The notes below the pieces were generated by a model. The model did no database searches. It saw nothing but the letters and a program-made list of their open reading frames with translations, and was not told the origin of the DNA. A stretch of DNA of 52,925 bases from Oscillospiraceae bacterium (GTDB lineage Bacteria > Bacillota > Clostridia > Oscillospirales > CAG-272): assembly GCA_015064525.1 (NCBI GenBank), contig SVSC01000002.1, forward strand, positions 1 through 52,925, in the 5' to 3' direction. This document shows positions 12,502-52,082 of this stretch, piece by piece. Positions within the stretch are counted from its first letter, which is position 1. Each line of letters begins with the position of its first letter. A program made the translations under genes and the position numbers.

Positions 12502-12569
12502 ATGGAACCTCGCTTTCTGCGCATTTCAACCGCATCTGTTTGAAACGGATGCGGTTGAGCAAAATTAGA

Positions 12570-14485: not shown

Positions 14486-14486
14486 A

Positions 14487-16412: not shown

Positions 16413-16712
16413 TCGTTTATCCTCCGTTTTTGTTTTTTTGAGCAAAAGCGACCCAACTCGCCCACGCTCTTTCACACTCATTATATCATAGGTTTGAACA
16501 GCTATCAACAGTAAAACGCACCAAAAGATACGTTTTTTATACCCAATCACATTTTTATTTCGTCAAAAAGTAGCAAATCTCAATCAATACTGCTTTATTT
16601 GACAGAACCATCTGCTTCAAAATTGTTAGATTTAACCAAATAATAGTGACAGTTCCTCCCCTATCTTACGCTTTTAAAAGTACAAAAAGAATACAATTTT
16701 TCCAAAAAGCTC

Positions 16713-16741
16713 TTGTTTTTTGTTAGTGATTATGGTAAAAT
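16713..16741 (+). promoter_or_regulatory. candidate promoter of the AraC gene
   Basis: TTGTTT-17 nt-TGgTAAAAT (extended -10), about 35 nt before the start codon. Confidence 0.4.
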
Positions 16742-16777
16742 AAAGACAGATTCATCTGAAATCGGAGGTGATTGACC

Positions 16778-17662: not shown

Positions 17663-17667
17663 CCAAA

Positions 17668-17714
17668 CGAGCCACCCATGGAATTTTCCACAGGTGGCTC
17701 GCCTTCTTATTTTT
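17668..17714. terminator. bidirectional terminator between araC and the CE15-like gene
   Basis: 9-bp stem cgagccacc/ggtggctcg. Followed by ccttcttattttt on plus and tttggtt on minus. Confidence 0.5.
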
Positions 17715-18789: not shown

Positions 18790-18804
18790 TTTCAACGCCC
18801 CCTC

Positions 18805-37907: not shown

Positions 37908-37955
37908 ATCAAAGCGGTTGCTCCATGCTGAAAAGCATGGAGCAACCGCTTTGAT
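37908..37955. terminator. long perfect hairpin after dat
   Basis: ~21-bp stem atcaaagcggttgctccatgc/gcatggagcaaccgctttgat, loop tgaaaa. The T tract is weak (cttta). Confidence 0.6.
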
Positions 37956-37969: not shown

Positions 37970-38248
37970 TTATTCGATTTCTATAAACCAACTGATATCA
38001 AGATTCAAAGATTCCGCATCGCAGAAATAGCCTCGATAGCGGAAGGGGTTATACAGCTCAAGCAGATTGGTTTCAAAGGCGCTGTTGCCGCTTACACCTT
38101 GCGCGGTGCAAACGCCCCACACATCATAGCTCATGCTGATGCCCGATTGGTTCAGCATGGTTTCGCTATTGTAGGTATAGGACGAATCCAATCTGCCCGT
38201 GCGGTCGTACTTGTACACCGTTACTTCATCGTTGCGGTGGTCGGTGAC
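37970..38248 (-). pseudogene. rhs relic (orphan C): two fused fragments of the RHS shell, no toxin tip
   Basis: Encodes SVTDHRNDEVTVYKYDRTGRLDSSYTYNSETMLNQSGISMSYD fused to VWGVCTAQGVSGNSAFETNLLELYNPFRYRGYF. These match the main gene around 44285-44420 and 43085-43190. It ends 19 aa later (CDAESLNLDISWFIEIE). Confidence 0.8.
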
Positions 38249-38327
38249 GGAAAGCCACAATATGTAGATCGGCTTGTCCAATGTGCGAACCATCGGGTTC
38301 ACATCCTTTCTTTGTTGTTTCGGCGCT

Positions 38328-38357
38328 CCCCGCGCCGCAATCAACAGCGGCGCGGGG
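38328..38357. repeat. GC-only palindrome, copy C (cassette boundary)
   Basis: CCCCGCGCCGC-aatcaaca-GCGGCGCGGGG, an 11-bp perfect stem. Confidence 0.9.
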
Positions 38358-38389: not shown

Positions 38390-39169
38390 TCATTTTCCTG
38401 TATTTTTGATCATCTTTCGGTTTTTCAATAAAGGATACAAACACCCCAAAAGCCACACGACAAGAAGCCCTATTATGATTCTGTTTATTGACATCATATC
38501 TTCAAATTGCAAAATCGTATTGTAGCTTTGAGTCACAAGCAAAACAGTCATCACAAGAGCAACAATCCAATAAAAAGCATTATCTCTTTTTAGTCTTTTA
38601 ATTAAGTAGGACTGTATTTGATTTGATACTTTCCCGTACTGTTTCACCTCAAATTCGTTCATCAGAAAGCGATTTACATTTTGATGCCAAAAGTATCCCA
38701 CGCCCCACATAATTGAAACCAACGAGACTGTTTTCACAGCACGATCTACATCGCTCCCACCGAAAAAGCCCAAAAAGAATAAGCAAGGAAGTAAAACAGT
38801 TCCCAAACAGATCAAAATCAACGCTGCAAGATCTTCATTTTTCAAATTTTGTATTTTTTTGAAATACTTTTCGCTTGATATTTTTTGTTTTTTTATCTCT
38901 TTGCCCTTCTGCTTTTGGTCAATCCGCAATTGCTCATCATAACTCACCTCGCGGTGACATGAAGGGCAAATATATGAATAAGTAGTCAGTTCATACTGAC
39001 TCATTCCGATATATATCGTACTTCCATGCGTGCTTGAAAAATCCTTGTCTCCCTTTTTTATGAGCCTTGTGCTTTTTTTGATCTTCAATCTCGTGCCGCA
39101 TTTGCCACAGTACATTTTTTTCAACAACATTCCTATTGGCATTTCGGCTTTGGATCCTGTCCATCCCAT
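38390..39169 (-). CDS. zinc-ribbon membrane protein (immunity-gene position of orphan B)
   Basis: ATG 39169 behind GGAGAGGAGG. CGKCG...CPSCH zinc ribbon, Lys-rich linker, then about 4 hydrophobic helices. AT-rich. Confidence 0.65.
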   Translation of the reverse strand: MGWTGSKAEMPIGMLLKKMYCGKCGTRLKIKKSTRLIKKGDKDFSSTHGSTIYIGMSQYELTTYSYICPSCHREVSYDEQLRIDQKQKGKEIKKQKISSEKYFKKIQNLKNEDLAALILICLGTVLLPCLFFLGFFGGSDVDRAVKTVSLVSIMWGVGYFWHQNVNRFLMNEFEVKQYGKVSNQIQSYLIKRLKRDNAFYWIVALVMTVLLVTQSYNTILQFEDMMSINRIIIGLLVVWLLGCLYPLLKNRKMIKNTGK

Positions 39170-39203
39170 AGCTTATTCCTCCTCTCCATATAACAGTCGC
39201 TTG

Positions 39204-39495
39204 GAACAAATTATATTTCTTTGAATCGATCTTAGAGATATTGTCTGAATTAAGAAACCTTCCCCACTGAGGATAATAATACCTACTTTGGAGATAATTG
39301 CATTCAATTTCCCAATCATAGAAATATCCACGATAGCGGAAGGGGTTATACGTCTCTACCAAAATCTACTCAAATGCGGAAACACCGCTGGCAACTTCGG
39401 GAGGCGCGCATACGCCCCACGCATCATAGCTCATGCGAATGCCCGATTGGTTCAGCATAGTTTCGCTATCGTAGGTGTAGGACGAATCCAATCTG
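39204..39495 (-). pseudogene. rhs relic (orphan B) with in-frame stop and truncated tip
   Basis: Reads GRLDSSYTYDSETMLNQSGIRMSYDAWGVCAPPEVASGVSAFE-stop(TAG)-ILVETYNPFRYRGYFYDWEIECNYLQSRYYYPQWGRFLNSDNISKIDSKKYNLF. It has the same fragment-fusion junction as orphan C. Confidence 0.75.
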
Positions 39496-39524
39496 CCCGC
39501 ACCGCTGTTGATTGCGGCGCGGGG
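39496..39524. repeat. GC-rich palindrome, copy B (loop inverted relative to copy C)
   Basis: CCCGCACCGC-tgttgatt-GCGGCGCGGG. The loop is the reverse complement of the copy C loop. There is one stem mismatch. Confidence 0.85.
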
Positions 39525-39540: not shown

Positions 39541-40179
39541 TTACGGTTCCGTCACGTGCGTGGACACAGGCTCGGTGATATTGGAAGAGATGGGTGTGGT
39601 TGTAACAGTAGTGCTGTTTGTAGTGGTGGTATCTTCCCCGCGCTCAATTTTCACTTCTTCAAAGTTGAAGAAGGGGAAGTAGGTTGCCATATACTCACCA
39701 AGCGTGATATAGGTGTATGGTTCCCCCACACGTGTTCCAACAGCAAGCAAGACACGATGCTCGTCGGAATAAGCAAAGTATATTCTCATATCGTTATGAT
39801 GTTGATCAGGAGATATGTTTTTTTTGAATACAAATGTTTTGTATGTCTCCGAGTGAATTTCGTCTTCCGGCATATGCTCGAAAAAATATTCTTTGGCTTG
39901 AACATACGTTTCTTCATCATACACCATATAAATCAGTGCTGTTTCATAACGATTGTAAGAATAGGTCATTTTTTTGTGCTGGTCAATATAGTCGTAATCC
40001 CCTCTTTCATACGGAAACATGGTTAAAAAATCCTGCGGAATCAAGGATTGAGTCAATCCGCATTGTGAATGTCCAAGGTGAAAATTTTCAATTCCTTGAG
40101 CCTGATATAAAGTGCAGGATGTCAAGAAAAGACTTATCACCATAGACAAAATCACAAAAATTCTCTTCTTCATGCTCAT
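39541..40179 (-). CDS. lipoprotein, putative immunity protein of orphan A toxin tip
   Basis: MSMKKRIFVILSMVISLFLTSC (lipobox LTSC). It starts 1 nt after the orphan A stop. AT-rich. Confidence 0.6.
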   Translation of the reverse strand: MSMKKRIFVILSMVISLFLTSCTLYQAQGIENFHLGHSQCGLTQSLIPQDFLTMFPYERGDYDYIDQHKKMTYSYNRYETALIYMVYDEETYVQAKEYFFEHMPEDEIHSETYKTFVFKKNISPDQHHNDMRIYFAYSDEHRVLLAVGTRVGEPYTYITLGEYMATYFPFFNFEEVKIERGEDTTTTNSTTVTTTPISSNITEPVSTHVTEP

Positions 40180-40180: not shown

Positions 40181-41494
40181 TCACCATCCCTTTTCTGCGA
40201 TAAAGCGCGCAGGTAATCTCACATGCCAGCGATCATCAGGGAACGGAATAAACTCTGCTTTCCTACAATCATCCGCAAGCTCACTTAGCACAGGTATCCC
40301 CCGTTTATCAGCCCAACTTAACGCAAACCATCCGTACATATGCAAGGTATACTCTCCGTAATACATCTTAGCATAATCATCGTAATACTTATGTCCCGTT
40401 TCATGTTTTGCGTGTTTCAAGCGATCCCATCTACTTATATACCCCTGATTCACATATGCTGAGACTTCGCCGGATTCATCAAGCCCCGTGGATCCGTCCG
40501 CAAAATAGTAGTATGCTTTATTTACCGCATTGTTCAAAGAACTGTCAACGTTCTTTTTCGTGCGACGCCCTTCTTTTATTGCTTCAGATAGGTTACCGTT
40601 TTCCTCATAAACGCGATCTGCCGCAGCTAAACCTGCCATGGTTGCAATAAAATCAGTTACTACACGAGTAACAATTTCCAAAAACACACCCCAATCCCAT
40701 TCACCGGTAGGATCATACCCCATTACCGGATTATTGCCACAATATGTGAACAAATTATAGGATAAGATTTCACCATCCATTCCCAAATTAGACAAGCCAT
40801 CCGCATTGAGGAATCTACACCATTCGGGATTATAATACCTGCTTTGGAGATAGTAGTATTTTGTTTCCGCATCGTAGAAGTAGCCTCTGTAGCGGAAGGG
40901 GTTATACAACTCAAGCAGATTGGTTTCAAAGGCGCTGTTTCCGCTTACACCTTGCGCGTTGCAAACGCCCCACGCATCATAGGTGTAGGCGCCGATCTTT
41001 CTGCCGGTCGAATCGTAAATGGCAACAATATCACCCTGCAAATTCTTTTCGAAGAAATAGCAACTGAAGGTTTGGGCGGGATCGGTTGATTTTCTGTACT
41101 TGATGCCTATGGGTGCCCCCGTTTCATCATAGACGAACAGCATCAAATGCTCGACATCTCTACGAACCCACTTTTGCCCTATCACCTGACTGCCGTTGAG
41201 AATATACTCATAGGTGGTCCCTTGGGCGGTCTTGCTTGTGCGGATGCCATCGGCGTTGTAGGTGAAGATGCATTCATCGGAGCTTTCATAGTACTCGCCG
41301 TACTCCGAAAAGTAGCAGTACCACATGGAAACAAGCTGTCTGCCTTCCCATTCAAACACGTAGCCCGCGCCGCTGTAGTAATCGGGATCATAATAGCCCA
41401 TGAAAATGGGGTTTCCGATCTCGTCGTAGATGATCTCATCTCCGTTGTAGATGGTTAAAAGATCGCCCCAACCGGTGGGATCACCAACAACCAA
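40181..41494 (-). CDS. orphan RHS C-terminal cassette A (shell end plus alternative toxin tip; no own start signal)
   Basis: 266 aa are near-identical to the main RHS C-terminal shell through YYYLQSRYYNPEWCRFLNADG. This is followed by NNPVMGYDPTGEW and a distinct 171-aa tip containing HETGH. The track start is TTG without an SD. Confidence 0.8.
   Translation of the reverse strand: MVVGDPTGWGDLLTIYNGDEIIYDEIGNPIFMGYYDPDYYSGAGYVFEWEGRQLVSMWYCYFSEYGEYYESSDECIFTYNADGIRTSKTAQGTTYEYILNGSQVIGQKWVRRDVEHLMLFVYDETGAPIGIKYRKSTDPAQTFSCYFFEKNLQGDIVAIYDSTGRKIGAYTYDAWGVCNAQGVSGNSAFETNLLELYNPFRYRGYFYDAETKYYYLQSRYYNPEWCRFLNADGLSNLGMDGEILSYNLFTYCGNNPVMGYDPTGEWDWGVFLEIVTRVVTDFIATMAGLAAADRVYEENGNLSEAIKEGRRTKKNVDSSLNNAVNKAYYYFADGSTGLDESGEVSAYVNQGYISRWDRLKHAKHETGHKYYDDYAKMYYGEYTLHMYGWFALSWADKRGIPVLSELADDCRKAEFIPFPDDRWHVRLPARFIAEKGW
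40795..41485. repeat. direct repeat of main rhs 43000-43690 (offset 2205 nt)
   Basis: 41147-41485 is identical to 43352-43690, shown by identical 103-aa and 85-aa antisense ORFs in the track. 40795-41146 carries scattered substitutions. Confidence 0.9.
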
Positions 41495-41564: not shown

Positions 41565-42401
41565 TTAAGCTTGTTGCTTCAGTAGATCCGCGATCTCGGT
41601 ATGACCTCTTTCCACGGCGTAGTCGTAGGCGGTTTTGCCATATTTATCCTGAACATCCGGTTGCGCACCGTTCTCCAACAGCAATCTAACAATACGAATA
41701 TCTGCATGGGTCCTTTGAACCGCACAAATCAAAATCGTATCTGAATACCAACGATATTGATCTACATCAATTGAGTACATTTGAAACAGAATTTCCATGG
41801 ATGCTACATCTCTGAGCATTTCATTAAGCAAGCCGGCAAAGTCATAGGTTTCCGGATCAATACCGGAGAGCATCTTTTTTAATAAAGCTTCTCCTGAAGA
41901 TCTATCTGTCTCGCCCACCATTCCCGCAACACAAGCCCCCATGGCATCAAAAATACCGTTAGAGCTACGTTGCAACGTGACATCAGCGCCATTTTGAAGC
42001 AAAACTTCTGCTATTTGATACTTGCTTTCGTGGGTAGTTAGTAAACAAATGATCAAAGGAGTTTGGGTTAGCATTGGTTCTTGGAAGTTTACATCTGCCC
42101 CCTTGGAAATCAATAGCTCAACCATTTCCAAATTTCCGCTCGAACAAGCCGCACATAGCGGATTAAAGCTATAGGAACCCCAAACATCCAATATGGTCAA
42201 TAACCATGCAGGAAGAAAAGTTGGAATCTCATCGATCGCTTCGGGATATTTTTCTATCAGACGCTCGACTTCTGATATATCATCTTTCTGTACGGCCTTT
42301 ACAATTTGCCTTGAATGATATACATCCGAGCAAAGGAACGACACTGTGATTCCTATGAACAGGAGCACAACAACAGCTACCAACAAGAGTTTTTTTCTCA
42401 T
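41565..42401 (-). CDS. membrane-anchored ankyrin-repeat protein, putative cognate immunity of the main RHS toxin
   Basis: ATG 42401 overlaps the rhs stop (ATGA) and follows GGAGG. Signal anchor MRKKLLLVAVVVLLFIGITVSF. Ankyrin repeats (NPLCAACSSGNLEMVELLISKGADVN, TPLIICLL...AEVLLQNGADV, TILICAVQRTHADIRIVRLLLENGAQPD, KTAYDYAVERGHTEIADLL). Confidence 0.75.
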   Translation of the reverse strand: MRKKLLLVAVVVLLFIGITVSFLCSDVYHSRQIVKAVQKDDISEVERLIEKYPEAIDEIPTFLPAWLLTILDVWGSYSFNPLCAACSSGNLEMVELLISKGADVNFQEPMLTQTPLIICLLTTHESKYQIAEVLLQNGADVTLQRSSNGIFDAMGACVAGMVGETDRSSGEALLKKMLSGIDPETYDFAGLLNEMLRDVASMEILFQMYSIDVDQYRWYSDTILICAVQRTHADIRIVRLLLENGAQPDVQDKYGKTAYDYAVERGHTEIADLLKQQA

Positions 42402-45400
42402 GCAAATACCTCCTCGCACCACTTAATCGGATAGTTTATAAGCGGCCCGGGATCTTCATCATTGTTTCCAAAGATAAAATACGGAATCACATCAACAAAG
42501 GTATGCCCGATCAACCCTACAATTCCATCAGCATTGACAAAATTATAGGTGCCTATATCACGCGCATCAGTTACAAGCTCCCCACCGGATCCATAGACTC
42601 CTTCTTGACCGTTGCGCCACGTAACCTTTTTGTTTCGTTTCTCACCGGCAGAAAATTGATGGAAATCATCCTTAACATTTGGGATAATGTCATCCTTATT
42701 GGTTTGCTCAGCAGTACTGAGATCATTGGGTACACCTTCATTTTTTGCAGCACGAACATCATAATGCCAAGTTTGAACTGCAAGCGCAGTGGTTGCAACT
42801 GTTGCGACTTTCCATGCAACACAAGTTAATGCCACATTTCCAGTTACAAGTCCTACACCGCAAGCCAACAGAGCACCAACCGCAACAGCCTCGGTAATCC
42901 ATCTAGGCCATGTTCCCTGTGAATCCGATTGATTGATAGGATCATTATTACAATATGCAAACATATTGTAGCTCAAGAGCCCTTGCCCTGTGCTTACATA
43001 TCCATCCGCATTGAGGAATCTGCACCATTCGGGATTATAGTACCTACTTTGGAGATAGTAGTATTTTGTTTCCGCATCGTAGAAGTAGCCTCTGTAGCGG
43101 AAGGGGTTATACAACTCAACCAGATTGGTTTCAAAGGCGCTGTTTCCGCTTACACCTTGCGCGGTGCAAACGCCCCAAGCATTATAGGTGTAGGTGCCGA
43201 TCTTTCTGCCGGTCGAATCGTAAACGGCAACAATATCCCCTTGCAGATTCTTCTCAAAGAAATAGCAATCAAACACATCTGCGGTATAATCGGATGTACG
43301 GTATTTAATACCGATGGGAGCGCCCATTTCGTCATAGACGAACAGCATCAAATGCTCGACATCTCTACGAACCCACTTTTGCCCTATCACCTGACTGCCG
43401 TTGAGAATATACTCATAGGTGGTCCCTTGGGCGGTCTTGCTTGTGCGGATGCCATCGGCGTTGTAGGTGAAGATGCATTCATCGGAGCTTTCATAGTACT
43501 CGCCGTACTCCGAAAAGTAGCAGTACCACATGGAAACAAGCTGTCTGCCTTCCCATTCAAACACGTAGCCCGCGCCGCTGTAGTAATCGGGATCATAATA
43601 GCCCATGAAAATGGGGTTTCCGATCTCGTCGTAGATGATCTCATCTCCGTTGTAGATGGTTAAAAGATCGCCCCAACCGGTGGAATCACCATAAAGGAAC
43701 ATGGAGTAATCCTGCGCTGAGCCAAGGGCTCCGGTAGTGAACGCATACTGCTTCTTTTCCAGTATATTCCCTGCGTTGTCGTAAATATACTCATAGCTGC
43801 AGTTCAACGGACGATTATCCTCGCGGATCAGCTGACCGAGGTTATCATACGCATACCGATACTGCACCACGCCGTTGGAATCGGTGATCTGCGTGATGTT
43901 ACCGCGGGAATCGTAGGTATAGTTATAGGTAGTAGCGGAAAGCACCGATGTGCCTGCCCCCACACGGATCTCGCTGGTCACTTGGGAGACCAAATGGGTG
44001 AGCTTATAGCCGTCATCAATCAGATACTCATAATTTACGTAGTTGTAGAAAGCATCCGCGTCGGAGGCGTTGAGATCAATGGTTTTATAGTCGGTTCTGC
44101 CGAACACGTCGTACTGCGGGTTGATGGTTCCCGTGATCCCGTCACCCGAAAGAGACACACGCTCCAGGTAGCCTGTTTCGTTACCGTAGGAATAATAGTA
44201 ATAGCTATCCGCACTGTAGTCGTCCCCATGGTAGTTTCCCGTGGGGCAGGCATAATCCACGCTTTGAGAAAGCCACACCAGCCGAGAGGATTCATCATAG
44301 CTCATGCGGATGCCCGATTGGTTCAGCATGGTTTCGCTATTGTAGGTATAGGAGGTGTCAAATCTTCCCGCGCGGTCGTACTTGTACACCGTTACTTCAT
44401 CGTTGCGGTGGTCGGTGACCGACGAAAGGTTGCCGCGAGAATCGTAGGCATAGGAGTAAACGGTTTCATAAGCGCCGTTTACACCTGTATTATAGCAGAT
44501 TTCTTCCACTCTGTCAAGCATATCGTACAAATATTTTACGCTTAATCCGTTTCCATAGTTCAAAACGCTTAATTTTCCGTTGTTTGCGTTGTACTCGTAG
44601 CTTGCCAGCTCATATCCACCAACGGTGACTCCCGTTGTGTTGCCGAAGGCATCGTAGGCGAAGAAATAGCTTGAGGATTCGGTGTAAATTCCCGTAAGCC
44701 GCTGGGTGACGGCATCGTAGTCGTAGTCCACCGACGCACTGTTGGTGACCTGACTATAGCTGTAGATTGGCTGGTCGGTGTTGGGATCGGTGGTGACTGT
44801 GAGCCTTGCGGGCAGCGTATGCACCAGATTCCCAATGGCGTCGTACTCATAATAAACGCCGTTGTTATCGGGTGTGGTTGCCGAGGCGATCAGCCGCCCG
44901 TTCTTTTCGTTGCGGAAATACAGCGTGACGTTGGAGCGGGTGTCCTCCTCCAAATATACCGCTCCAAAAATATGCGGAGAGTTGGAAAGATAATATTCTG
45001 TACGCTGATTGAACTGCTGATTGGTTCCATCGCTATTTTGCGTAACGGTGTTCGTTAGCAAACCATAGTCATCATAGGCGTAGGTTGTGAAATACATCTC
45101 CTGAATGTCATTTTCCGAAATGCTGTTAGGATTATAGATTCTGCCGCGCACATACCGCTTGGTGCGCTCACAAATAACACGGTTATTGGAATCATATTCG
45201 TATTCCATCACGGTTCCGCCGGAGGAAGCCGAACGAATCACGTTGTGATTTCCATCGTAAGCATTCCAAGCCCGATTATGCCCCGACATGGAGCTTGCAA
45301 GATAGCCATACTCATTGTAGCTATAAACAGCGGAGCCTGTGGAATCCACCACAAGAGAAATGTTATCGAAGGATCCCACCCCGGGGTTTTTGAGATACAG

Positions 45401-48400
45401 AAGCTTCACCGTGATGGTATCCACAATTCCTTTGCCCGGATCGGTTACAAAGGTGTTGCTCATGAACTGCCAATCGGTGATTTCCTTGTTGAAATGGAAG
45501 GTGTGGGTTTCGGTTGGCGCATCGGAGGTGCCGTTATAATACTTTACAATCACCTCAATGCCGAACACACTGCTTTCCGATTGACTTTGCGCCGTTCCCT
45601 TTGCAAAGCCGGACAGCGTGAAGAGAATCGGATCCCATTCCGCATAGAAATCATTGTCGTAATTCTGCTTTCGATCATTGTTTGCAACCGCAATTTGCTG
45701 TTGCGGAATCACGGAGGAGGTGAGGCTTTGAGAAACACGCAACACGTTACCGAACACGCCGATACCGGAGGCTCCCACAGAAACCGCGTTGGTGTTCACA
45801 TTGCTCCAAACCGAAGAAGGATTCGCTCCCGTGGTTTCAAAATGACCCATTTCGAGCATATCATACTCGGCAGTTCCCGTTGTTTTGGATAGCATGAGGT
45901 TACCCACTTCCACAACAATTTCTTGCGCAGGTGATCCCGTTACCACAACGGAAATTTTGTAGGTCTCGTTGCCTCCCGAAGCAGGCACAGTGAAATCCAG
46001 ATTTGCGAAAACGGTGGTAACGGTGGCGTAATATTCATTTACGGGAACCTCTTTCACAAAGCGATTCTGTGAATTGGTTACCGATTCGGCCTTCAAATAA
46101 ATCTGTGCCCCCTCGGCTTCAAACGTATTCACCACCATGGAAAGCGAATAGGTTCCTTCGCTGAGCGCAACATTTTGATAAATGGAAGAAGAATTCACAT
46201 TTTGATTTACCTTCAACTCTGCCCAGGAATGGCCGACATCATATCTATCCACAAGTAAGGTAGCAATACGGCGCACGGAGCCCGTGGTTTGCCAAACGTT
46301 CAACGTGGAGCCTGTATATTGCTCAAACCCACCGTTAAGCAGATAATTGGAGGAGCTTTGGGTGGTTTGCACCGAGGATTTGAGGTTGTTTTTCGCTTTT
46401 TCGTTTTCCTCGCCCACGTACTGTCCGCTTGAAGCGCCGTAGAGTCTTGTTCCATCGCTGTCGGTTGTGTAGCAGCTAACGGTTCTGCCCTCGTAGTCGA
46501 ACACGTAGGTGGTGCGAAGATCATCGTCGATGCCGCTGTAGTCCGAGGCTTCGGGATCGTCTAACACGTCGTTGGAGCCGCTTGTGGTGATCACGGTGCT
46601 GTCGGTGTTGTATTCGATCCCAATCTGCTGGCCGCTTACGTATCTCGTGCCGTTGTATGCCGACTCGGCAACGTTGATCACGCGGTTGTAGTGATCCAGC
46701 GTGTAATACAAACGGTAGCCGGTCATACCGTTTTTCACGGAATAGAGATAGCCGTTGGAATCGTAGGAATAGTCGGCAACGGCATCCACCACGAGACTGC
46801 CGTGGTTGGCGTTGGCATTGGTGTTGTAGAACGCCAGCAGCTCCGACTGGGTGAGGGTGGACTCGGTGCTCTTATGCAGGCGCACCGTTTGACGGAGATA
46901 GTTGCTGCCCGAGGTGGAAATGCTACCCGTTGGCGTTGCGGAATGGCGGAAGATCACCGCCTCGCCCGAGGTGGGATTCCACACCGCGTAGAGCAGGTAG
47001 TTGCTGTCGTACGCCAGCTTTAGCTGCTCGATGGGGGTGGTGGAGTCATTGGGATAGAGGTTGACGCCGATCGGGCGCGGACCGTAGTCGAAGGTGAACA
47101 CCACGCGGTTGCCGCTCCGATCCTCGATGGAGGTGAGATACCAGCCCGAAACCGTTCCCGCCGGCGTGCCGCCAAGATTGGTGAAATGCCGCACAGTCTC
47201 GCTTGAATCGGTAATGGTGACGGCGGTGTTTGTTTTGGCAAGGGTGAGGAGAAGACCGTCCTCATCGTCGTAGTACTTGACGTTATCCACTTCTTCACGA
47301 AGCAGGAAATAATGCTCGGTGCCGTCGGCATCCGCCCAGATCATGTAGGTGCCGATGGAGCCGTCCTTCTTCACGTAGTTCTTTTCCAGAACGGTTTCAT
47401 GAATGTTCTGCTTGAAGCCAATGGCAACGTCCGAGCCCCAATAAGAGGTTTGCACGTTGGGATACTGATATTTTTGCCCTGCCATGGAGGAATTGTAGAT
47501 CACAGTGGGCGTGTAGGGCATGAGGGCATCGGTGGAGGTGAGGGTTGGAATGGCAAACACCAAATTGCCTGTTGCGTGGTTCACCGAGCCTGCTCCCGCA
47601 AAGCCCGCGCTTTGGGAGGAATACGTCCAATAATCCTCCAGCCCCTTCATGTCTCTATACTCGATGCAAAGCACGGGACGCTCACTCACAGTGGCGCTAT
47701 CGTTGGAGCAAAAGATCGCGTCACCTACAGCAATGGTATCGGTGGCGGGGCCGAACATCATGCCGTAGTTTACGCCTGTGTACCATTTTTTCACGATGGG
47801 AGTGATATTCCATGTACAAGTGATATCCTTTGGAATATAGGTTTCTATATTGTCTCTGTAGACGGTTTCCACGTGGAAAAAATCGGTATAATTTGCCGCG
47901 GGCTTCCCCATGGAATTGGAGGTTGCCACCGTGTTGTTCCAGTTCAGGTATTGATCCCACGAGCTTGTGACGTCATACACAGCCACGTACTGAGAGACCT
48001 CCTCTGAGCTGACACACCGCATGGAGAAGGTGGCGTTGGTGATATAGGCGGAGCTCGGAAGGGTTGGCAGCGTGTTCATCCTCCAATATGTCCGCCAATG
48101 GGTGCCAACTGTCAGCTCGGCGCCGCTGAGATAGGTGGTGGTGGGCTCGGTGTAGTGAATGGAAAGATCCAGAATTGAGGAGTTATTGATCGAATAAATG
48201 GGTGGGTCGATGGTAACGGGATATGCCCGCTCGGTGTCATTCATCCATTCGCGGTCTGCGGTAATGGTAATGGTGTAGCTACCGTTACCGTGATCGACCA
48301 GCGACATGGCTACAGCTTCGGAGGTAACACCCGCTGCGTCCACAACGGTGGGGGCGGGAATTTGATAGAGCGGCGCCATGGTTTCGGGATTTGCCAGCAG

Positions 48401-49090
48401 AATGCCGCCATCCTCCGAGGCAACGGCAATCAGATTATTTAGGGAAAGGGCGAAGGCATAGGAATAGTCTTCGCCACGTGCTTTCACAATAATGTTCTCT
48501 TTGATATGCAGTCCGTTCAGAACGTACTCCAAATCAACGTTTTCCAAAATATCTTTGTATTGAACAGTTGCGCAAAGATTTTCCAAAAAGGTCATCTTTT
48601 GCAGCTCGGTCATTTCGGATTCGTCCTCCGCAGGTGCAAGAATCTCTCCGCGCACCTTCTTTTGGGCGCCGATCAGAGAAAGCTCCAGCTTGCGGTTGGC
48701 ATCATGCAGGGTGAACAAGCTTCCGCTTCCACCCGTTTTCTTTACAAACTTGACGCGAGCGTTGGAGGTGGTGATTTCACTTCCCTCCACTTGCAGGCGG
48801 TTGTCGATCTCCTTCCAATCGCCGTTTTCGTCGAGTGCGTGAACGGGAGACTCATATTGCGCCAGATAGTAGGAGCCGTTCTCCAAACGGAAGGTTTTGG
48901 AATCGGCGGTTCTCAGCTCGGTGAGCTCCATGATCTCCTCGGACTCCGCCGAGAGGGCCTCCCCACCGTTTTGGGCAAGGGCTTGCCGAATATCCTCGGC
49001 AAACACAGAAAGGGGCAAGGAAAGCAACACCAACAGAAGGGATAAAAAGACAGACAATGTTTTCACGGATAACTTCCTGATTTTTTTCAT
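42398..49090 (-). CDS. RHS/YD-repeat polymorphic toxin with Sec signal peptide
   Basis: Signal peptide MKKIRKLSVKTLSVFLSLLLVLLSLPLSVFA. Many YD repeats. RHS core end YYYLQSRYYNPEWCRFLNADG plus PINQSDSQGTW. 169-aa variable tip. GGAG SD. Confidence 0.9.
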   Translation of the reverse strand: MKKIRKLSVKTLSVFLSLLLVLLSLPLSVFAEDIRQALAQNGGEALSAESEEIMELTELRTADSKTFRLENGSYYLAQYESPVHALDENGDWKEIDNRLQVEGSEITTSNARVKFVKKTGGSGSLFTLHDANRKLELSLIGAQKKVRGEILAPAEDESEMTELQKMTFLENLCATVQYKDILENVDLEYVLNGLHIKENIIVKARGEDYSYAFALSLNNLIAVASEDGGILLANPETMAPLYQIPAPTVVDAAGVTSEAVAMSLVDHGNGSYTITITADREWMNDTERAYPVTIDPPIYSINNSSILDLSIHYTEPTTTYLSGAELTVGTHWRTYWRMNTLPTLPSSAYITNATFSMRCVSSEEVSQYVAVYDVTSSWDQYLNWNNTVATSNSMGKPAANYTDFFHVETVYRDNIETYIPKDITCTWNITPIVKKWYTGVNYGMMFGPATDTIAVGDAIFCSNDSATVSERPVLCIEYRDMKGLEDYWTYSSQSAGFAGAGSVNHATGNLVFAIPTLTSTDALMPYTPTVIYNSSMAGQKYQYPNVQTSYWGSDVAIGFKQNIHETVLEKNYVKKDGSIGTYMIWADADGTEHYFLLREEVDNVKYYDDEDGLLLTLAKTNTAVTITDSSETVRHFTNLGGTPAGTVSGWYLTSIEDRSGNRVVFTFDYGPRPIGVNLYPNDSTTPIEQLKLAYDSNYLLYAVWNPTSGEAVIFRHSATPTGSISTSGSNYLRQTVRLHKSTESTLTQSELLAFYNTNANANHGSLVVDAVADYSYDSNGYLYSVKNGMTGYRLYYTLDHYNRVINVAESAYNGTRYVSGQQIGIEYNTDSTVITTSGSNDVLDDPEASDYSGIDDDLRTTYVFDYEGRTVSCYTTDSDGTRLYGASSGQYVGEENEKAKNNLKSSVQTTQSSSNYLLNGGFEQYTGSTLNVWQTTGSVRRIATLLVDRYDVGHSWAELKVNQNVNSSSIYQNVALSEGTYSLSMVVNTFEAEGAQIYLKAESVTNSQNRFVKEVPVNEYYATVTTVFANLDFTVPASGGNETYKISVVVTGSPAQEIVVEVGNLMLSKTTGTAEYDMLEMGHFETTGANPSSVWSNVNTNAVSVGASGIGVFGNVLRVSQSLTSSVIPQQQIAVANNDRKQNYDNDFYAEWDPILFTLSGFAKGTAQSQSESSVFGIEVIVKYYNGTSDAPTETHTFHFNKEITDWQFMSNTFVTDPGKGIVDTITVKLLYLKNPGVGSFDNISLVVDSTGSAVYSYNEYGYLASSMSGHNRAWNAYDGNHNVIRSASSGGTVMEYEYDSNNRVICERTKRYVRGRIYNPNSISENDIQEMYFTTYAYDDYGLLTNTVTQNSDGTNQQFNQRTEYYLSNSPHIFGAVYLEEDTRSNVTLYFRNEKNGRLIASATTPDNNGVYYEYDAIGNLVHTLPARLTVTTDPNTDQPIYSYSQVTNSASVDYDYDAVTQRLTGIYTESSSYFFAYDAFGNTTGVTVGGYELASYEYNANNGKLSVLNYGNGLSVKYLYDMLDRVEEICYNTGVNGAYETVYSYAYDSRGNLSSVTDHRNDEVTVYKYDRAGRFDTSYTYNSETMLNQSGIRMSYDESSRLVWLSQSVDYACPTGNYHGDDYSADSYYYYSYGNETGYLERVSLSGDGITGTINPQYDVFGRTDYKTIDLNASDADAFYNYVNYEYLIDDGYKLTHLVSQVTSEIRVGAGTSVLSATTYNYTYDSRGNITQITDSNGVVQYRYAYDNLGQLIREDNRPLNCSYEYIYDNAGNILEKKQYAFTTGALGSAQDYSMFLYGDSTGWGDLLTIYNGDEIIYDEIGNPIFMGYYDPDYYSGAGYVFEWEGRQLVSMWYCYFSEYGEYYESSDECIFTYNADGIRTSKTAQGTTYEYILNGSQVIGQKWVRRDVEHLMLFVYDEMGAPIGIKYRTSDYTADVFDCYFFEKNLQGDIVAVYDSTGRKIGTYTYNAWGVCTAQGVSGNSAFETNLVELYNPFRYRGYFYDAETKYYYLQSRYYNPEWCRFLNADGYVSTGQGLLSYNMFAYCNNDPINQSDSQGTWPRWITEAVAVGALLACGVGLVTGNVALTCVAWKVATVATTALAVQTWHYDVRAAKNEGVPNDLSTAEQTNKDDIIPNVKDDFHQFSAGEKRNKKVTWRNGQEGVYGSGGELVTDARDIGTYNFVNADGIVGLIGHTFVDVIPYFIFGNNDEDPGPLINYPIKWCEEVFA

Positions 49091-49248: not shown

Positions 49249-49677
49249 TTAGTTGCTGGGGCAGGTTCTGTAAATCGTTTTTTCAACGCTTTCACCAATA
49301 CCGTTTTTATACACAGTTACATTTAGAACTGCTTTATATTCTGCCCCTGGTACTGCTGCGAATTCTGTATACACAATCATTGTCATTTCAGTAGTGCTGT
49401 TGTACGCAGAAGAAACCACAAACCAATCACCGCCAACATTAATGTACACCGTGATAGTAGCTTCAATCAAATCTGATGCAGATTTTTTCACTATTTGTCC
49501 ATAAGCTGAAGCAGGATTGGTTCCAAATCCCATGTTAGAACTTATAGAAAAGATGTTGTCCCACATAGGAACCACCACATCGTCATCCGGCAGCGCCGCG
49601 TAGGAAGGGATAGAGAAAAGCAAGCACAGGCTCAAAACAGCTAAGAGTAACGAACACAGTCTTTTCGTCTTTTTCAT
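49249..49677 (-). CDS. small secreted protein of unknown function, immediately upstream of rhs
   Basis: ATG 49677 behind AAGGA (the track start at 49683 is a TTG). Signal peptide MKKTKRLCSLLLAVLSLCLLFSIPSYA. About 115 aa of beta-rich mature part. AT-rich. Confidence 0.7.
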   Translation of the reverse strand: MKKTKRLCSLLLAVLSLCLLFSIPSYAALPDDDVVVPMWDNIFSISSNMGFGTNPASAYGQIVKKSASDLIEATITVYINVGGDWFVVSSAYNSTTEMTMIVYTEFAAVPGAEYKAVLNVTVYKNGIGESVEKTIYRTCPSN

Positions 49678-49824
49678 AATCAAAATCCTTTCTGAATAAA
49701 CTTCTGCCTACACCTTATATAACAGAAAAAGATGGCAAACATTACACCAATTTCAAAAAAGCAACTGAAATTCCATTTTTTGCACAAATGAAAAAGATCG
49801 GTTTTGTAAATTCTGACGTGATTT

Positions 49825-49947: not shown

Positions 49948-50199
49948 TCATCCTTTCAAAATCGGTCTCTGCAAAAAATCCTCCGCCACCTCACGCAAAT
50001 GAACGGGATCTAACCGCAGGCTGTTGCAGAGCGCAACCAGTTCCGTCATGCGTGTTCGATCGGTGGTCAGGTCTCGGGCGGATGCAACAATGGTGGCGCT
50101 TCCCTCCTCCGCCGCGTTGGCGCAGGCAACAATTCCATAGGAAACGCGAATGTAATGATTGAGAACATAAATTTCCTTCACAAGCCCATAGGTGATCAT
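49948..50199 (-). CDS. 83-aa conserved-looking hypothetical protein
   Basis: AGGAGG SD, 33 nt after the HTH gene. Translation MITYGLVKEIYVLNHYIRVSYGIVA...LCNSLRLDPVHLREVAEDFL. I cannot assign a family with certainty. Confidence 0.6.
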   Translation of the reverse strand: MITYGLVKEIYVLNHYIRVSYGIVACANAAEEGSATIVASARDLTTDRTRMTELVALCNSLRLDPVHLREVAEDFLQRPILKG

Positions 50200-50707: not shown

Positions 50708-51481
50708 TTATTTAACGCTTTCGGCAAAGGAAATTAAATCTGATTTTGCTAAAAAGCCCTGTATTTTATAGACATATTCGCCGTCAAACCAAGTAATAGC
50801 ATTAAATTCATTCTCGCCATAAAACAATATAACGGCGGGGTTACCATTTATTTCCATATGTTTTAAATTAAGTTCCGAATTATCATACCACATTTCATCC
50901 TTTAGTAGCGACTGAGTAAAGGTAAAACACCATTCATCTTCTTGACTGAAATCCAGTGTATAAACCAAACCACTAACAAATGTTTCCACACCAATATACC
51001 CCTCCGGCAATCCCTGCGGCTTGCGGTACTCCAGAATAACGGTGGGAACCTCCGCGGCGGGCGGCTGAGGCTCGGTGACACTTGGTTCCGTTGGTGTTCC
51101 AAGGCTTTCGGCAGGCGGTGCCTGCGTTTCAGCGGCATCCTCCGAGGGTGACGGTACAAAGCTTACAGAAACAAAATCCTCATACCACGAAACAATGCTT
51201 CTCCAAATGGTTTTTCCCAAGCCCGAAACGCTCAACGTCAGCACGATCATGGCGGTAATGATTGCGGCAATTGCCAGCACGCGGGCGGGCGATTTTCTGC
51301 GAACCGCTCCGAATTTCGGCGTATGGCTTTCAATGGTCTTGCGCACCTTTTCGTCGATCCAATCGGGGCGAACCACCGAGGATGTATCCATGGCGGCAAT
51401 GGAGGCTGCCGTCTTTTTTGCATGCTCCTCCAGCGCCAAACAAAGCAACGTATCCAGTTGCTTTTCAACGCTTCTTCTCAT
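50708..51481 (-). CDS. single-pass membrane protein, anti-sigma-factor-like (DUF4367-like C-terminal domain)
   Basis: ATG 51481 overlaps the sigma stop (ATGA). Cytoplasmic N-terminal region, TM VLAIAAIITAMIVLTLSVSGL, Pro-rich linker, and a C-terminal ~120-aa exported domain. Confidence 0.5.
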   Translation of the reverse strand: MRRSVEKQLDTLLCLALEEHAKKTAASIAAMDTSSVVRPDWIDEKVRKTIESHTPKFGAVRRKSPARVLAIAAIITAMIVLTLSVSGLGKTIWRSIVSWYEDFVSVSFVPSPSEDAAETQAPPAESLGTPTEPSVTEPQPPAAEVPTVILEYRKPQGLPEGYIGVETFVSGLVYTLDFSQEDEWCFTFTQSLLKDEMWYDNSELNLKHMEINGNPAVILFYGENEFNAITWFDGEYVYKIQGFLAKSDLISFAESVK

Positions 51482-52044
51482 AGCCAATTCTCCTTTCTCA
51501 ATTCCGCAAACAACCTTTTTCTCATGCGGGAAATGCAAACACGGTAGGTATTCGGTGTGATTCCAAGGATTTTTGCTGCATCAGCATCGGAAAAGCCATA
51601 GATGAACCGCAAATAAAGCATATCCACATAGCGCGCTCCCATGCCGCTAACGATCTGCTCCGCCCGCGCGATCAGCTCTTTTGAGAATACAATACGGTTC
51701 ACGTCGGCGGAATAATCCACAATGTCAAACTCCATGCCATCCTCATCGCGTAAGGTTGACGCTTCATGTTGCATTCTCCGCTTGATTTTATGATACCGAT
51801 TGAGGGCATTGTTCCGACAGCACATGTGCAGAAAACAGCTTTGATGCGTTGCGTCCATTTCACGGAAGGACTGCAAGCTGTCGATCAGAATAACCACGGT
51901 ATCATGAACGCAATCCCAGCAATCATCCGCCAGCTCCAAAATCCGATTAGCGGTTTCAAAAAGCTGATTGCAATTTTCACGATAAATGCCATCCACGTAA
52001 TCCCTGTCGTTTTCATCTCGAATTGCCGCTATGATCGGTAGCAT
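51478..52044 (-). CDS. sigma-70 family (ECF-like) RNA polymerase sigma factor
   Basis: Region 4 HTH YLRFIYGFSDADAAKILGITPNTYRVCISRMRKRL. Region 2-like DCVHDTVVILIDSL. ATG 52044 behind AGAGGGA. The track start at 52077 lies about 6 nt from the -10 box. Confidence 0.7.
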   Translation of the reverse strand: MLPIIAAIRDENDRDYVDGIYRENCNQLFETANRILELADDCWDCVHDTVVILIDSLQSFREMDATHQSCFLHMCCRNNALNRYHKIKRRMQHEASTLRDEDGMEFDIVDYSADVNRIVFSKELIARAEQIVSGMGARYVDMLYLRFIYGFSDADAAKILGITPNTYRVCISRMRKRLFAELRKENWL

Positions 52045-52082
52045 TTTTATCTTTCCCTCTTTCATTGTTTTTTTCATTGTTC

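Follow-up and report, generated by a model that had tools for sequence, protein, structure and literature searches.

WapA of Bacillus subtilis has three CWB2 repeats for wall binding, its tip is a tRNase, and its immunity is cytoplasmic; it is reportedly a Sec-dependent Rhs/YD toxin with WapI as its immunity protein, as Koskiniemi et al. are said to have described in 2013. TelC of Streptococcus intermedius, an LXG protein exported by a T7SS, has lipid II phosphatase activity and, with TipC, is said to form an envelope-acting toxin with surface-exposed immunity, a description credited to Whitney et al. in 2017. WapA-CT1 of Streptococcus suis (3158 aa) combines LysM repeats, DUF6531 and a nuclease tip, its Rhs region is reported as two Rhs domains, and srtB and secF-like partner genes lie upstream (PMC12704120). 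Bacterial teneurin-like proteins (BiTLP; PDB 9pt5, 9ifo) are defined by an FN-plug, an NHL beta-propeller and a YD shell (PMC13018210).

In the window analysed here, the whole stretch of 52,925 nucleotides, a gene of the Rhs type (rhs, 42398..49090, minus strand like all features below) encodes a protein of 2230 aa. Read from sequence, the locus is, with high probability for the explanation as a whole, a Sec-dependent Rhs polymorphic toxin system. Like B. subtilis WapA, it combines a Sec signal, a YD shell with Rhs core, a polymorphic tip and an adjacent immunity gene with no T6SS or T7SS, whereas the rhs product lacks CWB2 in a profile search, has CBM-type modules, including two within the shell, and ends in an undescribed tip whose immunity protein is predicted to face outward. 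It shares with S. suis WapA-CT1 the order of Sec signal, N-terminal domain, DNRLRE, Rhs region and C-terminal toxin as well as a downstream cassette, there a truncated WapA-CT2 (PMC12704120), but LysM, DUF6531, srtB, secF-like partners and a nuclease tip are absent here, and the CBM pair present here is not described for WapA-CT1 (PMC12704120). Shell and core are homologous to those of T6SS Rhs effectors (8h8a, 7q97, Tse5 8cp6, Tse15 8uy4, 8qja), with E-values of 1e-27 to 1e-37 for the family profile against the solved shells (best quoted 9e-37), and an aspartyl autoprotease motif, an encapsulated tip (predicted here) and orphan cassettes are also common to both. Those effectors, however, have N-termini of the PAAR, VgrG, DUF6531 or prePAAR type and depend on a T6SS for firing, where a Sec signal and CBM-type modules characterize the rhs product, and none of the solved ones contains a CBM pair in its shell. 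BiTLPs resemble it in the Sec/SPI signal in Gram-positives, the YD shell with PxxxxDPxG cleavage, the polymorphic tip (~15 kDa in BiTLP) hidden in the shell and the adhesion-type N-terminal domains (PMC13018210). Unlike BiTLP, the protein has CBM-like sandwiches as its extra domains, inserted ~420 residues after the shell begins; NHL and FN-plug were not detected in the rhs product, and BiTLP structures aligned to its core region only. Tc toxin TcB-TcC (4o9x, 6h6e), with which the rhs core aligned at E 1e-8 to 1e-14, likewise has an Rhs cocoon, repeats interrupted by a foreign domain and a core protease, but the Tc cocoon consists of two polypeptides, docks to a TcA injector, acts on a eukaryotic target and has a beta-propeller as insert instead of CBM-like domains.

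The rhs gene, its family and its export

The rhs ORF begins with ATG, occupies exactly 42398-49090 and is preceded by an AAAGGAG ribosome-binding site 7 nt 5' of the start; as the initial annotation had stated, it is the largest in the ORF list of the window. Its identification there as an Rhs/YD polymorphic toxin was borne out by Pfam RHS_repeat (E 4.6e-16) and TIGR03696 Rhs_assc_core (aa 1969-2059, E 1.7e-15), and YD_repeat_2x also matched. The motifs quoted for the end of the Rhs core were recovered, with YYYLQSRYY at aa 2010 and PINQSDSQGTW at aa 2051-2061. Among the scored candidates, 338 proteins were related at E<=1e-10; most of the 120 relatives listed measure ~2100-2350 aa and cover at least 90% of the query, relatives are encoded in hundreds of species representatives, and of the best 80 loci the majority are full length. 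Past ~90%+ of query coverage the tips of the homologues differ, with REase, GHH, AHH, GH-E and PT-HINT Pfams in most of those listed. In gut Clostridia, proteins built in this way form a large family. Family members come from gut and rumen habitats. The host of this locus is read as a Gram-positive gut anaerobe of the Bacillota, most likely of the Clostridia: the Gram-positive context assumed initially agrees with the Bacillota housekeeping genes McsA/McsB/ClpC, PolA and Dxs in the window, which is also rich in GH43, GH2, GH28, CE2 and glucuronyl esterase genes.

Hydrophobicity scanning and conservation placed a predicted signal peptide at aa 1-31 (48998..49090; MKKIRKLSVK, hydrophobic core, SVFA/ED), with 5 basic residues within the first 10, a Kyte-Doolittle value of 2.51 over aa 6-34, and a cleavage site V-F-A/E-D at which P26 and A31 hardly vary among 53 aligned homologues. 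The Sec signal proposed earlier thus appears canonical and family-conserved; the precursor would pass through Sec, and signal peptidase I would cut after A31. No T6SS, T7SS/LXG, PAAR or VgrG genes were found by the Pfam scan of window ORFs, in agreement with the earlier statement, the scan having covered gene-like ORFs of at least 150 aa, above WXG100 size, in 1-38.5 kb (with few of the opposite-strand ORFs that overlap others) and the genes beside the rhs locus. A dedicated export machine whose genes lie beyond the window (a T7SS or a sortase/SecF-like pair) might be considered, with the N-terminal hydrophobic segment as an anchor only, as the genome stretch covered amounts to 53 kb only and S. 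suis WapA-CT1 requires SecF-like and SrtB partners (PMC12704120). We regard it as very unlikely, given that such genes were not found among the window ORFs scanned, that the surroundings (8 kb) of three homologues on contigs of 110-186 kb contain no T7SS, sortase or SecF-like genes, that the rhs product has no LXG, WXG or LPXTG features, and that the V-F-A site after the hydrophobic core is conserved. The description "WapA-like" holds for the Sec export route but not otherwise; neither CWB2 nor LysM, sortase or a SecF-like partner was found at the rhs locus.

N-terminal modules and the interrupted shell

The mature protein is predicted to start with a DUF7948-like module (aa 32-300; 48191..48997) with an invariant I-D-N-x-L at aa 95-99. 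Its own DUF7948 match is weak and below threshold (aa 134-206, E 0.009), and the homologues P0090 and P0092 matched significantly at the aligned position. A divergent DNRLRE/CBM96-type module follows at aa ~301-480 (47651..48190). There the window protein itself scored below the DNRLRE HMM threshold, and the assignment comes from aligned homologues, of which P0088, P0120 and P0090 matched NF033679 DNRLRE_dom (aa ~308-490, E 1e-20 to 1e-23) and P0088 and P0120 also Pfam CBM96 over aa ~308-490. On these matches, a third CBM-type module precedes the shell in the family.

The first half of the protein had been described as non-repeat, which was not upheld. Part A of the shell (aa 485-905; 46376..47638) opens with the Rhs N-terminal start motif GSVNHATGNL...IYNSS and continues in divergent YD repeats: hhalign of aa ~495-905 against the post-insert shell gave 94.6% probability (E 6.6e-8) in several registers, compared with less than 3% against every other domain of the rhs product. 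This profile-profile similarity is the support for part A, as solved Rhs structures did not match the pre-insert shell and all PDB profile matches to Rhs shells fell in part B (aa 1256-2060; 42911..45325), which consists of canonical YD repeats, as expected for the half noted earlier as dense in YD repeats, and ends in the Rhs core identified by TIGR03696 (aa 1969-2059). The 53 aligned homologues all retain R2016, D2029, D2056 and G2059, and autocleavage after T2060 is predicted. From what is known of the family, the repeats of aa ~495-905 and 1256-2060 would form one shell around the last 170 residues outside the cell, and the aspartyl protease of the core (R2016, D2029, D2056) would cut after T2060; the conservation of the motif is the observed part.

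Between both parts lie two CBM-like beta-sandwiches, the first (aa ~912-1072; 45875..46357) identified by a CBM61 profile match, AF2 and Foldseek, and the second (aa ~1073-1250; 45341..45874) by AF2 and Foldseek. As YD repeats flank the pair (aa ~912-1250) on both sides, it is an insert in the shell and not, as first proposed, part of a non-repeat N-terminal half. The quoted motifs were located as NGGFEQ at aa 919 and EMGHFE at aa 1080 (GHFE at aa 1082). The profile of sandwich 1 matched CBM61 modules in the PDB (9fli, 3.2e-9; 2xom, 5.7e-9), whereas sandwich 2 gave weak sequence matches to CBMs only, with an AF2 pLDDT of 80-94 over its length; hhalign related the two sandwiches at 66% probability. 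The AF2 model of the pair showed tandem beta-sandwiches (pLDDT 83.8), and Foldseek retrieved tandem CBM22 (4xup, E 4.5e-11), CBM61 and CBM16 (TM ~0.75) and also glycan-binding-type domains of Vip3 and Cry protoxins. F922, W933, Q972, G1082, F1084, W1095, W1207, Q1208, F1241 and D1242 are invariant family-wide. The pair thus resembles CBM61, CBM22 and CBM16 (2xom, 9fli, 4xup, 2zew) in its beta-sandwich, with TM ~0.75 to single modules, and in the N-terminal NGGFE strand, and its tandem arrangement is that of Xyn10C CBM22-1/2, but the modules are not on a glycoside hydrolase and the similarity of the second is at fold level only. Of the initial assignment as CBM4/9/22-like, the CBM-like folds (CBM22, CBM61, CBM16) were confirmed, but CBM61 is nearest by sequence and Pfam CBM_4_9 did not match the rhs product; neither did Pfam PT-TG, which had also been suggested. 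The DNRLRE/CBM96-type module and the CBM61/16/22-like pair, whose fold the model shows, would bind a surface glycan, for which the producer wall, target cells or a shared substrate are candidates.

The toxin tip and its ankyrin-repeat partner

The tip, the ankyrin gene and the orphan cassette array were not commented on in the initial annotation. The C-terminal toxin comprises aa 2061-2230 (170 aa; 42401..42910), in which a helical hairpin with a hydrophobic core (aa ~2064-2093) precedes a conserved ~120-aa domain; the AF2 model (pLDDT 95.9) showed a confident hairpin and a compact domain. A search with the tip domain led to 925 cluster representatives at E<=1e-3, with H84, K95, G101, E103, G120, N123, H136, D140, P143 and G148 (toxin numbering) invariant. 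Pfam, NCBIfam and PADLOC gave no match for the domain, PHROG one weak match to an uncharacterized family, and Foldseek with the tip model no significant match in PDB or BFVD, the sole PDB resemblance being weak and to the metazoan AMOP domain. By these searches, the tip is a previously undescribed toxin domain outside Pfam.

Directly behind the tip, Ank_2 (E 7.9e-23), a TM scan and the start context identified the putative immunity gene (41565..42401), whose product, an ankyrin-repeat protein of 278 aa, has a membrane anchor at its N-terminus (~aa 4-30 from the ATG at 42401; segment 4-36, KD 3.07, when the 7-residue-longer GTG ORF was scanned). Its ATG and the rhs stop share an ATGA, and its strong RBS (GAGGAGG) is located within the 3' end of rhs, by which it is translationally coupled to rhs. 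The same order of toxin domain and ankyrin gene was found in all eight non-phage contexts (the window, L024, L036, L081, L085, L089, L090 and L091), and each of the eight cognate ankyrin proteins begins with basic residues followed by a hydrophobic membrane or signal segment (for L085 after extension of the ORF to an upstream TTG), even where the toxin has no hairpin (L036) or the carrier is not an Rhs protein (L085, L090). These N-terminal segments point to an action of the tip at the envelope; it probably acts outside the cytoplasm on a component of the outer face. In many family members, the toxin domain follows a linker that is hydrophobic or strongly basic.

A cytoplasm-acting enzyme on the same Rhs carrier, such as an RNase-like H/K/H toxin that uses the hairpin for crossing the target membrane and is caught by surface ankyrin before entry, appears unlikely. 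In its favour, small nucleases typically have H, K, E and H residues such as those invariant here, nucleases are carried by sister Rhs proteins of the family, and the database protein P0171 joins the toxin domain to ankyrin repeats, with no hydrophobic stretch between the two apparent when the sequence is read; but the searches revealed no resemblance to a nuclease fold, and the membrane or signal segments in eight of eight ankyrins, which persist without hairpin or Rhs carrier, speak against it. As those sister nucleases need the cytoplasm, the carrier is therefore not limited to envelope-acting tips. For the envelope-acting tip, the hydrophobic hairpin would, on release, tether the H/K/E/N/H/D domain to the target membrane, and our leading guess is a hydrolase of a wall precursor, a wall polymer or a lipid head group. 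The arrangement resembles TelC/TipC in the proposed action outside the cytoplasmic membrane and the membrane-anchored, outward-facing (here predicted) immunity, but differs in that a Sec-exported Rhs protein is the carrier and an ankyrin-repeat protein the immunity.

Orphan cassettes and the target of the system

Downstream of the ankyrin gene, blastn and Rhs_assc_core (E 3.7e-17) identified orphan cassette 1 (40181..41494), in which a 690-nt piece of rhs 3' core with 94% identity to main aa 1800-2030 is joined to a different tip of 204 aa with no match in families, PDB or PHROG. The next gene (39541..40179), recognized from its sequence and hydrophobic segment, encodes a lipoprotein (lipobox LTSC) without family match and is the probable immunity gene of orphan 1. 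Orphan remnant 2 (39249..39500; blastn and translation of ORF 38991-39362) has an internal deletion that joins main aa ~1574-1600 directly to ~1968-2027, and is diverged and without the DPxG end; the polytopic membrane protein behind it (38390..39169; TM scan and sequence), with two CxxC pairs and weak zinc-ribbon matches only, is possibly its immunity protein. Orphan remnant 3 (38012..38251; blastn identity 92-94%, ORF 37970-38344) is truncated and shares this deletion junction (main aa ~1557-1600 joined to ~1968-2007), and a terminator-like perfect hairpin of 20 bp (37909..37954; terminator scan) closes the array. As read from these alignments, the array 3' of rhs comprises three orphan toxin cassettes, of which one is intact and two have decayed.

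Alternatively, the rhs product might mainly serve a polysaccharide degrader as an adhesin for fibre or mucin, with the Rhs shell as scaffold and a tip that is no weapon; this would be in line with three CBM-type modules and the many GH43, GH2, GH28, CE2 and glucuronyl esterase genes. We consider it extremely improbable and prefer a toxin system, as the intact protease residues, the tips polymorphic across the family, the translationally coupled immunity gene and the orphan toxin/immunity cassettes are hallmarks of the latter. A eukaryotic host or protist as target, in the Tc/Vip3 manner with the CBM pair binding host glycans, is suggested by the Vip3 and Cry protoxin resemblance and the gut and rumen habitats, yet is highly improbable: a TcA-like partner is absent, and cognate and orphan immunity genes imply a risk of self-intoxication, which argues for a bacterial target.

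In such an antibacterial system, the CBM-type modules would take the place that CWB2 or LysM anchors have in other WapA-type proteins, and sister cells would be protected by the ankyrin protein exposed at the outward side of their membrane. As orphan and main gene share core DNA of 94% identity, tip swapping is possible, and homologous recombination would exchange toxin tips while each immunity gene is kept.

The rhs gene and the domains of its product

The gene at 42398-49090 (minus strand) is a single ORF with an ATG start and 2230 aa, the longest in the ORF listing of the window as the initial annotation had claimed, with the ribosome-binding site AAAGGAG 7 nt 5' of the ATG. All motifs quoted in that annotation, including PINQSDSQGTW, were located in the protein by sequence search (aa 919, 1080, 2010 and 2051-2061). 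The proposed Rhs/YD toxin with an RHS core was borne out by matches to RHS_repeat in Pfam (PF05593, E 4.6e-16) and to Rhs_assc_core (TIGR03696, aa 1969-2059, E 1.7e-15) and YD_repeat_2x (TIGR01643, E 4e-6) in NCBIfam. When a profile of 53 full-length homologues was searched against the PDB, solved T6SS Rhs cocoons were matched at E 1e-27 to 9e-37, and teneurins and TcB/TcC were matched as well. The protein is an Rhs/YD polymorphic toxin, an assignment far above chance; YD repeats, a core with the catalytic Arg and two Asp, and a constant carrier with a variable tip and an adjoining immunity gene were all found. At the N-terminus, five basic residues and a hydrophobic core (Kyte-Doolittle 2.51) are followed by V-F-A/E-D, giving n-, h- and c-regions, and P26 and A31 hardly vary within the family. 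These are the features of the Sec-type signal proposed for the protein, which would be cut after A31.

In the core, R2016, D2029, D2056 and G2059 are invariant in 53 of 53 homologues, and we take the Arg and the two Asp to be those of the Rhs/TcC aspartyl autoprotease. The same catalytic triad has been described for BiTLP (PMC13018210). The core ends with PINQSDSQGT/W, a PxxxxDPxG-type motif with Ser replacing Pro after Asp, and the predicted released tip therefore comprises aa 2061-2230 (170 aa, ~18.5 kDa).

Upstream of the core, the mature protein appears to open with a DUF7948-like module (aa 32-300) bearing an invariant I-D-N-x-L motif (aa 95-99), for which the match is below threshold here (E 0.009) and significant in homologues. 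The following putative DNRLRE/CBM96-type module (aa 301-480) gave no NF033679 (DNRLRE) match in NCBIfam at E<=1, and was assigned by its alignment with a homologue region that matches NF033679 (1e-20 to 1e-23) and Pfam CBM96. An Rhs start motif, GSVNHATGNL...IYNSS, is read in the sequence from aa ~485 onward. The first half of the protein had been described as non-repeat, which did not hold, as aa ~615-868 consist of YD repeats: hhalign aligned them to the later shell in several registers with 94.6% probability (E 6.6e-8), and to every other domain of the protein with less than 3%. No solved Rhs structure aligned to this first part of the shell by sequence in the profile search of the PDB. Canonical YD repeats, with profile matches to solved Rhs shells, occupy aa 1256-2060.

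Between the two repeat regions lie two predicted beta-sandwiches (aa ~912-1250). AlphaFold2 modelling of the pair from a 21-sequence alignment led to a pLDDT of 83.8 and a pTM of 0.86, and Foldseek related the model to the tandem CBM22-1/CBM22-2 of Xyn10C (E 4.5e-11), to CBM61 and CBM16 (TM 0.73-0.77 normalised to the target) and to the CBM-like domains of Vip3 and Cry protoxins. When the family profile was compared with the PDB, module 1 matched CBM61 structures by sequence (E 3e-9 to 6e-9) and module 2 gave no significant match, only hits at E>=0.1. From the AlphaFold2 model, the Foldseek neighbours and the CBM61 matches, the earlier reading of the two NGGFE stretches as CBM-like is right at the level of the fold, a modelled beta-sandwich (jelly-roll), but the Pfam family that had been named, CBM_4_9, was not matched by the whole protein or its 500-aa pieces at E<=10. 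Nor was PT-TG, another expected Pfam match, found under the same settings. Judged by the repeats on either side, the pair is an insertion inside the YD shell. Its motif residues are invariant in 53 of 53 aligned members, so that the insert is a trait of the whole rhs family. A foreign domain interrupting a cocoon has a precedent in TcB; no account of an Rhs shell harbouring a CBM pair was found in the open-access literature searched.

Toxin tip, ankyrin protein and probable site of action

Only three relatives of the tip were retrieved by a word-indexed search. When 1.84 billion representatives were searched exhaustively with a profile, 925 cluster representatives were obtained at E<=1e-3 and 200 at 1e-10. 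The conserved unit corresponds to tip residues ~45-165 (~120 aa), with the motifs HY.RN ... HQF ... N.KYVSPDG..E ... GTYN ... GH...DV.PW ... GN and, in tip numbering, the invariant residues H84, K95, G101, E103, G120, N123, H136, D140, P143 and G148. It is carried at the C-termini of Gram-positive Rhs proteins and of T6SS-type Rhs proteins with DUF6531, by an alpha/beta-hydrolase-containing protein, and by proteins with a DUF7211 'MKWGVRR' N-terminus. No Pfam family was recurrent among 49 members scanned, NCBIfam and PADLOC contain no family for the domain, and PHROGs gave one weak match (E 0.0013) to a family of unknown function. When toxin, immunity and orphan proteins were compared with PHROGs and PADLOC, nothing informative was obtained besides the phage-associated DUF7211 N-termini, and none of the sources searched offered a functional name.

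AlphaFold2 gave a very confident model of the tip (pLDDT 95.9), in which a long helical hairpin (tip residues 3-56, the first 33 hydrophobic) precedes a compact alpha/beta domain. Foldseek searches of the PDB and BFVD returned no significant structural neighbour, with nothing below E 0.5. The conserved set of His, Lys, Glu and Asp suggests an enzyme. Three known types were considered and rejected: a Cys-His peptidase, as the Cys that commonly precedes H84 in the family is Phe in the window protein; a phospholipase-D-type (PLD) HKD motif, for which the spacing in the tip is wrong; and an ADP-ribosyltransferase fold, as the model is mostly helical.

Among the DUF7211 carriers, a metagenome contig (k141_403123, L083:1957-7742) encodes seven consecutive DUF7211 genes, broken by a phage connector gene, with a portal gene at the end and a glucosaminidase lysin upstream. 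One 214-aa 'MKWGVRR' protein of this run bears the toxin domain, and the DUF7211 N-termini have many PHROG matches, to families of unknown function. The arrangement resembles an array of polymorphic effectors carried by a phage.

The only PDB sequence match of the toxin profile was to human Isthmin-1 (ISM1, 9c6t), weak (E 0.0054), within the AMOP domain and covering ~40 residues around GT.N...H..VDVLPW. It persisted at E 0.0084 when the profile was built from a subset of 25 more distant toxin members, and the same chain was the top, non-significant Foldseek match of the tip model (E 0.63, TM 0.25). Pfam AMOP was matched by none of 49 family members. We consider it possible but unlikely that the AMOP domain of metazoans (Isthmin, MUC4, SUSD2) and this bacterial domain are related. 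An origin from a bacterial polymorphic-toxin module has been proposed for teneurins. A true link would be relevant to how an enigmatic animal domain arose: AMOP would then be a further animal extracellular domain derived from such a module, and the conserved His, Lys, Glu and Asp would suggest that an enzymatic activity on cell-surface molecules has been lost or overlooked.

Directly downstream lies the proposed immunity gene (41565-42401, minus strand), whose ATG overlaps the stop codon of rhs in the sequence ATGA and has GAGGAGG in front of it. The 278-aa product starts with MRKK and a 20-residue hydrophobic segment, followed by ankyrin repeats (Ank_2, 7.9e-23), which by the positive-inside rule would face outward. 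An ankyrin gene directly follows the toxin domain in all eight non-phage contexts examined (the window and the public loci L024, L036, L081, L085, L089, L090 and L091), among them two toxins on non-Rhs carriers and an Rhs tip that lacks the hairpin. Basic residues and a hydrophobic segment open each of the eight ankyrin proteins, in L085 once the ORF is extended to an upstream TTG, and in many family members a hydrophobic or strongly basic linker precedes the toxin domain. Because of the ankyrin pairing, these N-terminal segments and the linkers, an extracytoplasmic, membrane-proximal site is the best reading, and the tip probably acts there. At odds with a surface-located immunity protein is P0171, a database protein of 468 aa that joins the toxin domain at aa 82-182 to ankyrin repeats at aa 360-463 in one chain and shows, on reading its sequence, no evident hydrophobic segment between the two; the fusion may be genuine or an artefact of gene calling.

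Displaced cassettes and genomic surroundings

Downstream of the ankyrin gene, blastn uncovered three partial copies of rhs. Orphan 1 (40797-41486) is 94% identical to aa 1800-2030 of the main protein, retains a Rhs_assc_core match (3.7e-17), and then continues into a different 204-aa tip for which no PDB sequence match was found. In the decayed remnant 2 (39249-39500), aa ~1574-1600 are fused directly to ~1968-2027, and in the truncated remnant 3 (38012-38251), aa ~1557-1600 to ~1968-2007, so that both have the internal deletion junction in common. A lipoprotein gene with the lipobox LTSC (39541-40179, minus strand) follows orphan 1, a gene for a Zn-ribbon polytopic membrane protein (38390-39169, minus strand) lies between remnants 2 and 3, and a 20-bp perfect hairpin (37909-37954) closes the array. 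A main rhs gene with displaced tips is a classical arrangement, and by its sequence the array follows this layout; main gene and orphans would recombine through the core segments that they share. The G+C content is 42-46% over 38-44 kb versus ~47-58% through most of the window, and no tRNA gene was found at the island border. The three candidate immunity proteins, i.e. the anchored ankyrin protein, the lipoprotein and the Zn-ribbon protein, are all of membrane or surface type, which suggests that the stored orphan tips may also act on the envelope.

Inside rhs, near aa 1525, a perfect 12/12 sigma-70 consensus (TTGACA, 17 nt, TG-TATAAT) is found at 44489-44517 (minus strand), shortly before the stretch that recurs in the orphan remnants. 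The site may drive the 3' end of rhs and the immunity genes as a promoter within the gene, or have arisen by chance; the promoter scan revealed no excess over the shuffled expectation.

Immediately upstream of rhs, a small secreted protein of 144 aa with a signal-like N-terminal segment is encoded (49249-49683, minus strand), of which a 32%-identical copy lies at L001:12546-12962, within the span of that locus's Rhs match (10001-19209); a small gene just 5' of rhs was also seen in other homologues. For an 83-aa ORF further upstream (49948-50199, minus strand), copies of 56% and 37% identity were seen close to the Rhs gene in L002 and in L006; in L002 at least, copy and Rhs gene are on opposite strands. 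Adjoining the locus at 50708-52077 (minus strand) is a pair of genes for a sigma-70 region 4 protein and a DUF4367 (anti-sigma-like) partner, and the same pair occurs at L088:5978-7190, beside a 36%-identical Rhs homologue on an unrelated contig; a regulatory link to rhs is possible.

Elsewhere, the window encodes PolA, Dxs, McsA/McsB/ClpC and a class IV aminotransferase. At 1145-19830, a plant-polysaccharide enzyme cluster comprises GH43, GH2, CE2, two GH28, a glucuronyl esterase and a metallophosphoesterase with an AraC regulator; four large ORFs of the cluster (7605-9134, 12570-14339, 14487-16550 and 18805-19830) gave no Pfam match. The host appears to degrade pectin/hemicellulose. Two ORFs of more than 700 aa, situated between clpC and the gene for the aminotransferase, overlap on opposite strands (34819-37035, plus, and 34840-36981, minus); neither had a PDB sequence match, and the plus-strand ORF had no Pfam match.

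Family distribution and relation to known Rhs systems

A homologue search with rhs as query led to 338 proteins at E<=1e-10 among 8000 scored candidates. Most of the 120 listed homologues are ~2100-2350 aa long and 35-51% identical over at least 90% of the query, after which their toxin Pfams differ (REase-7, GHH, AHH, GH-E and PT-HINT). In GTDB species representatives, 574 stretches encode relatives, and most of the best 80 loci extend over almost the full protein. Bacillota MAGs of human, ruminant and other guts account for nearly all, with assignments to Oscillospiraceae, Acutalibacteraceae, Ruminococcus, Lachnospiraceae and some Bacilli.

For export, the initial annotation had pointed to a WapA-like route. 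B. subtilis WapA is exported by Sec, and its CWB2 repeats define wall anchoring. The export logic of the rhs protein is similar, both proteins having a Sec signal, but the CWB2 repeats of WapA are absent: neither CWB2 nor SLH or LysM was matched in Pfam by the whole protein or its 500-aa segments at E up to 10, and the same scan gave no NHL, PAAR or LXG match. The reported lack of T6SS, T7SS/LXG, PAAR and VgrG genes was upheld among the scanned window ORFs (gene-like ORFs of at least 150 aa in 1-38.5 kb and the genes beside rhs), which likewise included no sortase or SecF-like gene, and PAAR, VgrG, DUF6531 and LXG were found neither there nor in the rhs protein itself. T6SS, T7SS, sortase and SecF-like genes were also not found within 8 kb of three homologues on contigs of 110-186 kb. 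The observation made in the initial annotation is real and its interpretation essentially correct.

The nearest characterised relative in architecture is S. suis WapA-CT1, with a Sec signal, an unknown domain, DNRLRE, 'two Rhs domains', a tip and a truncated second cassette (PMC12704120). In contrast to the rhs protein and the scanned window ORFs, it has LysM, DUF6531 and SrtB/SecF-like partners; LysM, DUF6531, srtB and secF-like genes were also not found next to the three homologues. Bacterial teneurin-like proteins, defined by FN-plug, NHL and YD, combine Sec export with an encapsulated tip (PMC13018210), and the rhs protein shares with them a Sec signal and a tip predicted to lie in the shell. 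A teneurin-like protein was rejected, as neither NHL nor FN-plug was matched in Pfam; teneurin-like PDB entries aligned to the rhs core only (profile positions 1941-2020).

The locus is within the Sec-dependent Rhs/WapA class and not a new kind of system. What makes it worth following up are the CBM-type modules in the predicted cocoon, the widespread undescribed toxin domain with its surface-anchored ankyrin immunity, and the likely action at the envelope. The toxin-ankyrin pair, for which no description was found in the searched open-access literature, represents a widespread toxin/immunity family that is not in Pfam and has no name in the databases searched, and its toxin domain is also found on phage virion-module proteins. 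As the tip is predicted to act at the outer face of the cell membrane and its antidote to be on the surface, no membrane crossing would have to be explained, and the locus offers a simple test case for how a Sec-exported Gram-positive Rhs toxin reaches its target without an injection machine. The ~2200-aa Rhs family is abundant in gut and rumen Clostridia, and the sugar-binding-type module pair in its predicted cocoon suggests that glycans direct the targeting, which could influence how fibre degraders compete.
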